From the NCBI RefSeq assembly GCF_054482525.1, contig NZ_CM137006.1: a stretch of DNA of 64,000 nt; one strand, given 5' to 3'. The notes under the pieces are model-generated. The model did not search any database and had not been told where the DNA came from. It worked only from the letters and a program-made list of their open reading frames with translations. The translations under genes were made by a program, and so were the position numbers. This document shows positions 40,707 to 42,414 of the stretch, in pieces (positions within the stretch are counted from its first letter, which is position 1; the number at the start of each line of letters is the position of its first letter).

Positions 40707-40761
40707 AGAAAAGCCCCGAGTGATATTTTACTATCAACCCGAGGCCCCCTATATGCAGAAC
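40707..40761 (-). ncRNA. sokC: putative Sok-type antisense RNA of the hokC locus
   Basis: Placed by analogy to hok/sok organisation (antisense overlapping the mok start); not verified by structure prediction. Confidence 0.3.
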
Positions 40762-40962
40762 ACATGTAGAGTGCCTCTTACTGACCGTAAGGTCAAGGAG
40801 AAGAGAGCAATGAAGCAGCATAAGGCGATGATTGTCGCCCTGATCGTCATCTGTATCACCGCCGTAGTGGCGGCGCTGGTAACGAGAAAAGACCTCTGTG
40901 AGGTTCACATCCGAACTGGCCAGACGGAGGTTGCTGTTTTCACGGCTTACGAATCCGAGTAA
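40753..40962 (+). CDS. mokC: Mok-type overlapping reading frame of hok/sok toxin locus
   Basis: ATG at 40753 opens a frame overlapping and co-terminal with hokC. Confidence 0.55.
   Translation: MQNTCRVPLTDRKVKEKRAMKQHKAMIVALIVICITAVVAALVTRKDLCEVHIRTGQTEVAVFTAYESE
40810..40962 (+). CDS. hokC: Hok-family small membrane toxin
   Basis: 50-aa product MKQHKAMIVALIVICITAVVAALVTRKDLCEVHIRTGQTEVAVFTAYESE, a typical Hok toxin. Confidence 0.85.
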   Translation: MKQHKAMIVALIVICITAVVAALVTRKDLCEVHIRTGQTEVAVFTAYESE

Positions 40963-40984
40963 GAGCAACGGCGGGGAGTGATCC

Positions 40985-42323
40985 CATAAGCGCTAACTTA
41001 AGGGTTGAACCATCTGAAGAATGCGACGCCTCGGTGCCTCGTTAAGACGATGCCTCGCGTTCTTCAATTGCGTTTTGTAGGCTGTCAGGGATACTGTCCC
41101 ACGAATGGCCACCTGTAAGCTCCAGATGACCATTTTTGTTATTCTCCACAACGAGTTAGTTCTTCTTTTCGGATCCGGCACTTCTGGGGGGGAAATCCAG
41201 CGATGGCTGGATTATGTCGTCAATTAAAAATGCGGCGAGTAGATTAGCAAATATCCACGCTTTCGCGAGTTCAGGTTCCTTTGCACGCAAAGCATCCAGG
41301 TGCAGCAAACTTTTGAGCCGCTTAAAAGCCAGTTCAATTTGCCATCGCAGACGGTAACAATCAGCCACTTGCTCTGCTGAATATTCATCTTCCGGTAATG
41401 ATGTTAGCAATAGCACATGGCCCGCTGCTTCCAGCGTTTCCGCCTGAACTACTCGTCCTTTTCGACGATTCTCGCTGAGCAGTCGGGTTTTACTGATTAA
41501 TGCTTTTTCGGGAGGAAGTGATACGGCAATGAGACGTGCCGGAAAGGGAGCTCCGGCTTTTTTATTACCTGAATTGCCTATCATTACAGTGGTTTCACCG
41601 TTCTTACCGCAATCCAGCCCGCGCAGAAAACCCATCATGTCAAAGCGCATTCCTTCTGCAGTTAACCAGCGCAATCCTCGCCAGTGAACCCGGACGATAT
41701 AATCAGCTTCTCCAAAAGCAAGTGAGCGGATACATTCGGGACGCGAACCGAATCCCCGGTCAGCAATGCGTATCTCGTCTGCCGTTTGCGCAAATCGGTC
41801 CAGCCGTTCAGCGTCTCTGCTGTCGGTTAGCTCAAAATCAGTGAACTGACAGGTATGAGGATCATATCCCATATGTAGTCGCCATTCAGCGCTGCCGCCC
41901 CCGGGCGCACTGATTGCTGTTCCATCGACAAGACGCAATCTCTTTCCGCTTGTACAACCCGTAACTGCGGCGCGTACAGCAAGTGTTTGTGCGGCAAGTA
42001 TGCCAAACCAGTCGGCGGCATTCCGCAGCCGCTTCAGGAGAGCCACGTCAGATAATGTTGCAACGTCATGGAGCTGAGCCCATGCAGTGACTTCACGTAA
42101 TGACATCCCCCCGGGGCCGTAAGCCAGCCCCAGACGTAGCAGAGTTGCAGCATCACGAATTTCGCGGCGGCGGGTTAGAGCCCCGGCATTACGTGCCGAA
42201 GTATCCAGTTCTTCGGGCTTACCAATATGGGCCAGAATTGCTGACCAGTTATCGTGAGAGTAATTCATCGGCACGTTAAATCATATCAGGCGTAATACCA
42301 CAACCCTTAAGTTAGCGCTTATG
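40985..42323 (-). mobile_element. IS186 insertion sequence (IS4 family)
   Basis: Perfect 23-bp terminal inverted repeats CATAAGCGCTAACTTAAGGGTTG (40985-41007) and revcomp (42301-42323); 10-bp direct repeat GGAGTGATCC on both flanks; one transposase ORF. Confidence 0.93.
41156..42268 (-). CDS. insL1: IS186 transposase
   Basis: ORF 41156..42274; product begins MNYSHDNWSAILAHIGKPEE. Confidence 0.92.
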   Translation of the reverse strand: MNYSHDNWSAILAHIGKPEELDTSARNAGALTRRREIRDAATLLRLGLAYGPGGMSLREVTAWAQLHDVATLSDVALLKRLRNAADWFGILAAQTLAVRAAVTGCTSGKRLRLVDGTAISAPGGGSAEWRLHMGYDPHTCQFTDFELTDSRDAERLDRFAQTADEIRIADRGFGSRPECIRSLAFGEADYIVRVHWRGLRWLTAEGMRFDMMGFLRGLDCGKNGETTVMIGNSGNKKAGAPFPARLIAVSLPPEKALISKTRLLSENRRKGRVVQAETLEAAGHVLLLTSLPEDEYSAEQVADCYRLRWQIELAFKRLKSLLHLDALRAKEPELAKAWIFANLLAAFLIDDIIQPSLDFPPRSAGSEKKN

Positions 42324-42414
42324 GGAGTGATCCCCGCCACTTTACAGGTGCTCGCATATCTTCAACGCACCCTGGTTTTACCCAGGCCTGCCCACGGGCA
42401 GGCTTTTGGGGAGG

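Follow-up and report, generated by a model that had tools for sequence, protein, structure and literature searches.

An IS186 insertion in the 3' hairpin loop of hokC, probably recent and of separate origin from the K-12 insertion

The insertion sequence IS186 sits in the loop of a GC-rich hairpin that lies shortly past the stop codon of the chromosomal toxin gene hokC, dividing the hairpin into two halves, in the DNA that we analysed (64,000 nt of contig NZ_CM137006.1, NCBI RefSeq assembly GCF_054482525.1; hereafter the window). We consider it likely that the element transposed into this loop recently, and independently of the event that placed a copy at the same position in K-12, with predicted consequences for the folding of hokC RNA.

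Results and discussion

IS186 and its junctions

IS186 occupies positions 40985-42323 on the minus strand (1,339 bp), with perfect terminal inverted repeats (CATAAGCGCTAACTTAAGGGTTG) that are exactly 23 bp long by direct reading and by script. Direct repeats of the 10-bp sequence GGAGTGATCC, at 40975-40984 and 42324-42333, bracket the element, which begins 22 bp past the hokC stop codon (40963-40984). The preliminary description of this DNA had given the distance from hokC, the length of the duplication and the length of the inverted repeats, and direct reading together with a script finds all three right to the base. A repeat finder stretches the direct repeat to 12 nt (GGGAGTGATCCC). Since the first base of IS186 is C and its last base is G, the ends of the element and the length of the duplication are ambiguous by 1-3 bp; the RefSeq annotation of K-12 gives IS186A as 1,345 bp, which maps to 40982-42326 of the window. 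The chance of a 10-bp match at both junctions is approximately 1e-6. IS186 with its duplication is not a chance pattern; its sequence, too, is that of a known IS.

The window contains only this one copy, whose DNA has zero differences from K-12 IS186A over 40985-42323. Its transposase gene, insL, is identical in DNA to K-12 insL1 and is transcribed convergently with hokC; the open reading frame (41156-42268) matches NCBIfam NF033592 (IS4 transposase) at 133 bits, against a curated cut-off of 115. A length of approximately 1.34 kb with inverted repeats, a single IS4-family DDE open reading frame and identity to the reference element all place it in IS186. The target is of the IS186 kind as well, with the 10-bp duplication and an empty site, GGGG-AGTGAT-CCCC, that forms a G-run/C-run palindrome.

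The hokC locus

With dnaJ as the right-hand neighbour, the locus is the dnaJ-hokC-nhaA interval (Table 1), and the K-12 locus hokC (gef)/sokC with IS186A (insL1; Pedersen & Gerdes 1999; EcoCyc/RefSeq b0016-b0018, b4412, b4413) has the dnaJ-nhaA interval in common with it. The hokC open reading frame has zero nucleotide differences from K-12 hokC, and relatives annotate the same 50-aa HokC protein as WP_000809168.1. The NCBIfam Hok subfamily model matches with an E-value of 2e-12 and 46.8 bits, which is under its 73-bit cut-off, so membership of the Hok family rests on identity to K-12 hokC. On the mRNA strand, Rfam RF01794 matches over its full length with 118.8 bits (gathering score 59), which accounts for the conserved leader/antisense (Sok) region; the antisense gene itself, sokC, was placed through the K-12 annotation and overlaps both the mokC start and the mok Shine-Dalgarno (SD) sequence. 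The upstream mok frame overlaps hok and is coupled to it.

A candidate -10 box (40648-40653), absent from the calls of the promoter scan, lies 6 nt 5' of the putative mRNA start, a position in agreement with the mRNA end that the Rfam match indicates. At the other end of the locus, the native terminator hairpin is present in the MFE structure and has its T-run only on the plus strand, just before the dnaJ stop codon on the other strand.

Table 1. Features of the hokC locus and its IS186 insertion, in window coordinates
Feature	Coordinates	Strand	Basis or remark
Candidate -10 box TATAAT, hokC/mokC promoter	40648-40653	+	Sequence reading
tac, 5' end of hokC mRNA, GGGUGCUUGAGG	40660-40671	+	First position of Rfam RF01794 match
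sokC antisense RNA gene	40703-40761	-	K-12 RefSeq sokC 16952..17010 mapped through alignment
ucb (anti-SD box)	40711-40717	+	MFE pair tables
mokC Shine-Dalgarno GAGG	40741-40744	+	Sequence reading; 9 nt before ATG at 40753
mokC, 69 aa	40753-40962	+	Open reading frame and K-12 annotation; in frame with and containing hokC
dcb	40774-40777		Pairs with mok SD in folds of truncated and IS-bearing RNA
hokC toxin gene, 50 aa, intact	40810-40962	+	Stop TAA 40960-40962
Left half of split 3' hairpin, GGCGGGG and loop	40970-40984	+	Includes left GGAGTGATCC
IS186 inverted repeats	40985-41007 and 42301-42323		Repeat finder and script
insL, IS186 transposase, 370 aa, intact	41156-42268	-	Open reading frame; coordinates through K-12 insL1
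Terminator-like hairpin and T-run inside IS186	41538-41567	+ (hokC-sense)	Consensus scan; possible transcript end
Right half of split 3' hairpin, ...CCCCGCC	42324-42338	+	Includes right GGAGTGATCC
fbi (fold-back inhibition) element CUUCAACGCACCC	42360-42372	+	Pairs with mRNA nt 1-12
Native intrinsic terminator of hokC mRNA, GCCUGCCC-ACGG-GGGCAGGC-UUUU	42386-42408	+	Sequence reading
dnaJ, right-hand neighbour	42415-43545	-	NCBIfam DnaJ, 647 bits; K-12 annotation

Predicted folding of hokC RNA with and without IS186

Our conclusions about RNA all come from thermodynamic prediction. Removal of IS186 and one duplicate in silico restores the hairpin GGCGGGG-AGUGAU-CCCCGCC, and this reconstructed empty-site hairpin (GGCGGGGAGUGAUCCCCGCC) is present in the MFE structure. 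Its splitting by IS186 had been missed in the preliminary description.

In a reconstructed IS-free hokC mRNA of 400 nt, nt 1-12 (40660-40671) are predicted to pair with 42360-42372 with probabilities of 0.94-1.0; the tac-fbi duplex has an energy of -18.3 kcal/mol, and the mok SD lies on ucb (nt 55-58 with the SD). In the truncated RNA, the tac/ucb stem has a predicted probability of 0.98 (nt 52-58 with nt 1-8), and IS-bearing RNAs of 571, 644 and 906 nt are predicted to form the same stem with probabilities of 0.54-0.96. In the closed fold ucb is predicted to pair with the mok SD, and in the open fold with tac; the mok SD is predicted to pair with dcb in the truncated RNA and in the 571- and 644-nt IS-bearing RNAs. 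Both alternative pairings expected of a processed mRNA, tac/ucb and SD-mok/dcb, appear in these predictions, and end pairing of tac and fbi within one mRNA of approximately 400 nt is lost, fbi having been parted from the gene by IS186. The preliminary description had expected the insertion to remove or displace the fold-back element, and displacement is what the window contains: fbi is wholly downstream of the IS and 1,349 nt farther from hokC, with no intact fbi upstream of 40975. Folding with and without the native 3' sequence, a comparison that it had proposed, sets an IS-free RNA that pairs its ends (probability at least 0.94) against IS-bearing RNAs of 571-906 nt that form tac/ucb.

The plasmid R1 hok/sok system shares with the hokC locus the mok/hok overlap and an antisense RNA over the mok start, as well as a GC-rich hairpin after the stop codon, an fbi approximately 45 nt farther on, and then a terminator. 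In the R1 model of tac/fbi end pairing (Franch, Gerdes), the combinations tac-fbi/SD-ucb and tac-ucb/SD-dcb match our predictions for the window; indeed, R1 hok mRNA has two conformations that match the two predicted hokC folds, and the stem-loop equivalent to the split hairpin shields the processed mRNA from exonucleases (PMC9841398). Unlike R1, the window locus is chromosomal and has an interrupted 3' UTR, such that the closed fold is impossible for a transcript that ends in the IS. The hokC of the window is a disrupted member of the hok/sok kind rather than a non-member. Pairing between the 5' and 3' ends is also maintained in plasmid hok (G-U to G-C) and hokE (U-A to C-G). When the hokE mRNA was reconstructed with its 3' end placed arbitrarily, it folded into a local 5' hairpin with no end pairing, and direct duplex calculation for hokE finds the expected partner, AGGCACCU.

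We propose that the insertion spares the hokC promoter, the mokC and hokC frames, the sokC antisense gene, tac, ucb and dcb, and that it would do damage in two ways, by carrying fbi and the native terminator away from the gene, 1,349 nt farther downstream, and by destroying the 3' stem-loop that caps the processed mRNA. Transcripts of hokC would end inside IS186, making the closed, end-paired, translationally inert full-length fold impossible; they would instead go directly to the open tac/ucb conformation, in which SokC, RNase III and 3' exonucleases could act on them without delay. Delayed activation of hok relies on a stable pool of latent toxin mRNA, and this pool would be lost, with hokC presumably still transcribed and potentially toxic. 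The published view of gef/hokC in K-12 is similar: the IS is taken to disrupt fbi, the mRNA has its 3' end inside the element, and transcription of the gene continues under control of the antisense RNA (PMC3562002).

This sequence of events depends on where transcription stops. In a hypothetical read-through RNA of 1,749 nt across the IS, the MFE structure keeps the tac-fbi pairing and rejoins the split hairpin, the inverted repeats and the duplication being predicted to make a long stem that loops the IS out. Since the read-through RNA retains tac-fbi, fbi would be lost only if transcripts terminate or are cleaved within the IS. The terminator-like site inside IS186 could provide such an end, as a hint only, since promoter and terminator sites called by the scan, terminator-like ones included, were no more numerous than in shuffles. 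Separately, the 5' end of hokC RNA can form a duplex of -18.8 kcal/mol with IS186 sequence near 42114, which we set aside as a probable chance match because it lies beyond the terminator-like site and is absent from the 1,749-nt read-through fold.

We consider it unlikely, though worth weighing, that the insertion is without functional effect, either because hokC does not kill in any case or because a read-through RNA folds with the IS looped out. An IS-free hokC, that of ECOR24, reportedly gave no post-segregational killing (PSK) and no rifampicin-induced killing (Pedersen & Gerdes 1999, as relayed in bioRxiv 10.1101/2025.08.07.668861). The fold of the 1,749-nt RNA points the same way, and both orientations of the insertion are common (12% and 17% of genomes; see below), as for a neutral hotspot polymorphism. 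Against this, K-12 transcripts reportedly have their 3' end inside the element, and a terminator-like site is present on the hokC-sense strand of IS186; moreover, the stem that loops the IS out, approximately 45 bp and nearly perfect, would be a substrate for RNase III, and approximately 1.35 kb of extra transcription would delay pairing of the 5' end well beyond the time needed in the 400-nt RNA. We continue to favour a loss of the closed fold. Nonetheless, that the IS inactivates hokC is an inference rather than a demonstrated fact and, since IS-free chromosomal hokC is reportedly without PSK, the insertion may carry no phenotypic cost.

The hok hairpin as a target of IS186

The IS186 consensus reportedly described by SaiSree, Reddy & Gowrishankar in 2001 is a G-run, a short spacer and a C-run, and the hokC target hairpin, GGCGGGG-N6-CCCCGCC, is a GC-rich palindrome of the sort favoured by IS186. 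The element has been characterised as GC-specific and has been described at the hok-CRISPR region (PMC3903273). It is stated to enter an identical target in either orientation (PMC3045373, and as the title of Sengstag 1986 indicates). At the lon promoter, IS186 is recurrent at one single site, in either orientation, with a G-run/C-run target (PMC3045373). The hokC site shows like behaviour in the population. The two hotspots differ in that insertion at lon breaks up a promoter, with a phenotype that can be selected, whereas the hokC insertion lies in an mRNA 3' UTR hairpin.

Among 5,425 complete E. coli genomes, 3,815 (70%) contain the reconstructed empty site (GGCGGGGAGTGATCCCCGCC) unaltered. 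IS186 is present at the hokC site in the orientation of the window in 671 of the 5,425 (12%) and in the opposite orientation in 924 (17%), such that approximately 29% of these genomes carry it at exactly this site. The orientation counts come from junction queries on the dnaJ side and, with the empty sites, account for 5,410 of the 5,425 genomes. Short junction queries on the hokC side were dropped because they also match IS186 beside hokE, the cysH-iap hok and plasmid hok; earlier counts of 816 and 941 were dropped because, with 3,815 empty sites, they exceed the genome total. Dog, pig, cucumber, cheese and human sources are represented among the carriers, many of which are natural isolates, and FORC 064 has an identical IS186, reversed, with the same duplication. 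The suggestion in the preliminary description that such insertions belong to laboratory lineages does not hold for a site at which 671 + 924 of 5,425 complete genomes, natural isolates included, carry the IS.

The same element lies in the homologous hairpin of hokE, of a plasmid hok (in both orientations) and of the cysH-iap hok. It begins 21 bp past the hokE stop codon and 22 bp past that of the plasmid hok, with 10-bp GGAGNNATCC duplications at both; the cysH-iap hok copy of ML35 is without its duplication, which is consistent with recombination between IS186 copies. K-12 IS186B at hokE, the cysH-iap hok/CRISPR-I region and the plasmid hok resemble the window hokC in having IS186 in the homologous hairpin loop, but they are other hok paralogs in other neighbourhoods. 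We propose that, in E. coli, IS186 has entered the hokC site and the homologous hairpins of other hok genes time and again, in one orientation or the other. The phenomenon is known: both the K-12 insertion and the hotspots associated with hok have been published.

A survey of E. coli in which four hok homologs turned out to lie close to hotspots of mobile elements led Durrant et al. to suggest that the insertions are selected (bioRxiv 10.1101/527788); that is, disruption of hok would be adaptive, and this rather than target preference would explain the association between the IS and hok. In keeping with their suggestion, the toxin open reading frame is always spared and the RNA control region always struck. 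We nonetheless regard selection as a rather improbable explanation: all insertions that we examined are of IS186 and share the GGGG-N6-CCCC loop and the 10-bp duplication, just as target specificity alone would predict, and 70% of genomes retain an empty site.

It is very doubtful, in our judgement, that the relation is more than accidental, with the 3' hairpin of hok genes serving as a standing landing pad for IS186. In the 924 genomes with the opposite orientation, the constitutive hokC promoter reads in the sense direction into the transposase gene and could boost IS186 activity. Likewise, a read-through RNA with the IS looped out, in which the toxin mRNA still folds or is cut by RNase III, may act as a reversible RNA-level switch rather than a knockout.

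Comparison with K-12 and near relatives

The insertions in the window and in K-12 agree in their position 22 bp past the stop codon, their orientation and their GGAGTGATCC duplication, and there is no difference from the IS186A and hokC coding sequence of K-12 MG1655 over 40758-42373. Agreement ends at the edges of this tract. The flanks have diverged from K-12 by approximately 1% (50 mismatches in 4.7 kb), residue 2 of MokC is Q in the window and L in K-12 (A versus T at 40757), and bases 42374-42375 are GG in the window and AT in K-12. By contrast, strain 19KM1776 is 99.99% identical to the window, with 4 SNPs in 40,985 bp and 1 indel in 21,679 bp, and SCU-102 and PCN033 are 100.0% identical to it (as printed) over 25 kb. 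In all three, the hokC site is empty, suggesting that the insertion in the window is recent and independent of the K-12 event. The flank haplotype of the window was found in none of the genomes with IS186 in the same orientation, among which the best matches were 99.8%.

An IS-bearing allele might instead have been imported by short-patch homologous recombination, with no new transposition. The hokC coding sequence tract at 40758-40984, and bases 42334-42373, are uniform across K-12, CV839-06 and the lineage of the window, so crossovers within them would be traceless, and the IS186 copies in the strains examined are all identical. To fit the window, however, the imported tract must end at most 227 bp to the left and at most 40 bp to the right of the IS, where the window has its own bases at 40757 and 42374-42375, and a known site-specific hotspot is the simpler account; we think import highly improbable.

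That the locus is K-12-like by descent, as an old inherited insertion or as one typical of laboratory lineages, is almost certainly wrong: the shared site, orientation and 10-bp duplication, the lack of any difference over 40758-42373, and the presence of the insertion in all laboratory K-12 and B strains would fit such a history, but the flanks are approximately 1% off K-12 (50 mismatches in 4.7 kb), the site is empty in each of the three nearest genomes, and the IS is found, in one orientation or the other, in hundreds of natural isolates.

On the sequence evidence, the likeness to K-12 is one of convergent insertion at a hotspot, not of shared ancestry. The preliminary description had called the strain K-12-like at this locus, a reading that has to be given up in view of flanks approximately 1% off K-12 and the empty site in 19KM1776, SCU-102 and PCN033.

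Implications

These findings on hokC and IS186 leave current understanding unchanged and are mainly a clean worked example. Because the "K-12" junction arises again and again, it is unusable as a marker of K-12 ancestry. The counts of insertion sites may help work on chromosomal hok loci, and the near-isogenic natural pairs formed by the window strain with 19KM1776, SCU-102 and PCN033 could serve for tests of fbi in the chromosome. Lastly, the window indicates at base resolution why IS186 adjoins hok genes, in that the hairpin shielding the 3' end of the processed toxin mRNA is built of a G-run and a C-run, like the IS186 target.

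Structure of the locus and the IS186 target hairpin

Sequence checks confirmed the preliminary description of IS186, an IS4-family insertion sequence, downstream of the toxin gene hokC, except that the symmetry of the target leaves 1-3 bp of ambiguity at the ends of the element; a repeat finder gives a 12-nt repeat, and the RefSeq annotation spans 1,345 bp. IS186 begins 22 bp after the hokC stop codon, has perfect terminal inverted repeats of exactly 23 bp (CATAAGCGCTAACTTAAGGGTTG), and has a single ORF (41156-42268, minus strand) that exceeds the curated NCBIfam threshold for IS4 transposases. 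Across 40758-42373 the window has no differences from K-12 MG1655, whose copy of the element carries the annotation IS186A/insL1. About 35 nt before the IS junction, the HokC Tyr47 codon (TAC; within window 40945-40953, plus strand) stands in a UACG context; in the hok literature, A-to-I editing by TadA that changes Tyr to Cys is reported for hokB, and something similar for hokC, hokD and hokE.

Features of the hokC/IS186 region (window positions)
Feature	Position	Strand	Remark
nhaA	39057-40223	-	left neighbour of region
mokC	40753-40962	+	
hokC	40810-40962	+	TAA stop 40960-40962
IS186	40985-42323		1,339 bp
Target duplication GGAGTGATCC	40975-40984 and 42324-42333		both sides of IS186
dnaJ	42415-43545	-	right neighbour of region

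We rebuilt the empty site in silico by deleting IS186 and one copy of the duplication. The rebuilt site (...TAAGAGCAAC-GGCGGGG-AGTGAT-CCCCGCC-ACTTT...) is a GC-rich hairpin, with IS186 sitting in its loop. The Rfam sok/hok-leader model (RF01794) has a full-length match at 40660-40812 on the plus strand (118.8 bits), and we used the start of this match to place the hokC mRNA 5' end at 40660, 6 nt past a TATAAT box. Although RF01794 is named "sok antitoxin", it matches the hokC mRNA leader strand, opposite to sokC as annotated by RefSeq in K-12 (window 40703-40761, minus strand); what the model captures, in effect, is the conserved hok 5' UTR.

Predicted effect of the insertion on hokC RNA

In the minimum-energy fold of the 400-nt IS-free mRNA (40660-40984 joined to 42334-42408), nt 1-12 (GGGUGCUUGAGG) are predicted to pair with 42360-42372 (CUUCAACGCACCC; pair probabilities 0.94-1.0) and the mok Shine-Dalgarno (SD) sequence with the upstream box (ucb), with the 3' hairpin and the terminator (42386-42408) both present. 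For an RNA ending right past the 3' hairpin, the 5' end is predicted to move to the ucb, and the SD to pair with the downstream box (dcb). These two folds correspond to those described for hok mRNA from plasmid R1, a closed one (tac/fbi) and an open one (tac/ucb, SD/dcb), where tac is the mRNA 5' end and fbi the fold-back inhibition element (PMC9841398). The homologous 5'-3' pairing is kept in a plasmid hok, with a G-U pair changed to G-C, and in hokE, with a U-A pair changed to C-G.

The proposal that IS186 displaces the fbi element is supported: the predicted pairing places fbi at 42360-42372, entirely 3' of IS186 and not upstream of the insertion. Extending this idea, IS186 also splits and destroys the 3' stem-loop; in R1 hok, the equivalent structure caps the processed mRNA, and mutations in it lead to exonuclease attack and loss of function (PMC9841398). 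IS-bearing hokC transcripts with three plausible ends (571, 644 and 906 nt) are all predicted to adopt the open tac/ucb fold. The predicted consequence agrees with the literature on gef, the K-12 hokC, in which the IS is thought to disrupt the fbi and the mRNA end lies within the IS; transcription persists there, and the antisense RNA still controls the gene (PMC3562002). In a hypothetical 1,749-nt read-through RNA (40660-42408, plus strand), tac-fbi pairing is retained in the minimum-energy fold, and the inverted repeats, duplicated target and split hairpin halves together form a predicted ~45-bp stem that loops out the whole of IS186; by our reading, such a stem would probably be an RNase III substrate. 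Since IS-free chromosomal hokC reportedly did not mediate post-segregational killing, according to a preprint's summary of Pedersen & Gerdes 1999 (bioRxiv 10.1101/2025.08.07.668861), "inactivation" refers here to the RNA mechanism rather than to a demonstrated phenotype.

Recent insertion in the window's lineage

The locus had been described as K-12-like, and the insertion as a feature of laboratory lineages. Neither view holds. Over 4.7 kb, the flanks show 50 mismatches and one 1-bp gap relative to K-12, and the three nearest strains all have an empty site: 19KM1776 (dog, Switzerland), which differs from the window by 4 SNPs across 40,985 bp and a single 1-bp indel across 21,679 bp, and SCU-102 (human) and PCN033, each with 100.0% identity (as printed) over 25 kb. 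The window's flank haplotype is absent from genomes with IS186 in the K-12 orientation, the best matches being 99.8%. Empty sites in near-identical strains, together with the absence of this haplotype among same-orientation carriers, argue that the insertion is recent in the window's lineage and independent of that in K-12. Short-patch import of an IS-bearing allele, in place of new transposition, is very improbable, since it requires crossovers ≤227 bp and ≤40 bp from IS186.

By correspondence with the 19KM1776 annotation, the window has an IS3-family element (IS1397-like) between caiE and caiF (~15859-17216), and espX1 and a fimbrial operon between rpsT and nhaR (~31600-38100). These are probably the regions in which the window departs from K-12 outside the hokC locus. 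A 1-bp deletion relative to 19KM1776 in a C-run at 60086 splits creD (59720-61071, minus strand) into ORFs of 333 aa and 118 aa; the deletion is either a genuine frameshift mutation or a sequencing artefact in the homopolymer. In 19KM1776, a ccdA/ccdB-type toxin-antitoxin pair adjoins folA, corresponding to the window's left edge (1-250).

Recurrent IS186 insertion at hok genes

Junction queries anchored in dnaJ assigned 5,410 of 5,425 complete E. coli genomes to one of three site states: an uninterrupted empty site (3,815 genomes), IS186 in the window's (K-12) orientation (671), or IS186 in the opposite orientation (924). Carriers in the window's orientation include dog, pig, food and human isolates as well as K-12 and B laboratory strains. 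E. coli FORC 064 (cucumber; NZ_CP022664.1 4051598-4054646) has an identical, reversed IS186 with the same duplication. In FORC 064 and the 923 other opposite-orientation genomes, the transposase gene begins 78 bp past hokC on the same strand, such that transcription from the hokC promoter would run in sense into the transposase gene.

IS186 also occupies the homologous hairpin of hokE, a plasmid hok (in both orientations) and the hok gene between cysH and iap (cysH-iap hok), lying 21 bp past the stop codon in hokE and 22 bp past it in the plasmid hok, each with a 10-bp GGAGNNATCC duplication. In E. coli ML35 (NZ_CP025747.1 992490-996241), the cysH-iap IS186 is flanked by GGGTAAAACC (left) and GGGTTTTTCC (right) rather than by a target duplication, and directly abuts a CRISPR array, which suggests IS186-IS186 recombination deleting the cas genes, as proposed previously (PMC3903273).

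IS186 has been described as GC-specific (PMC3903273); at the lon promoter it enters one single site, in either orientation (PMC3045373), and the title of an early report refers to duplications generated at an identical target (Sengstag 1986). A population survey placed four hok homologs near E. coli mobile-element hotspots and suggested adaptive disruption (bioRxiv 10.1101/527788). Given how uniform the site, element and duplication are, target-site preference appears sufficient to explain the presence of IS186 at hok genes. The association of IS186 with hok genes is already known; the window adds another independent case, along with a set of near-isogenic natural strains for comparison.
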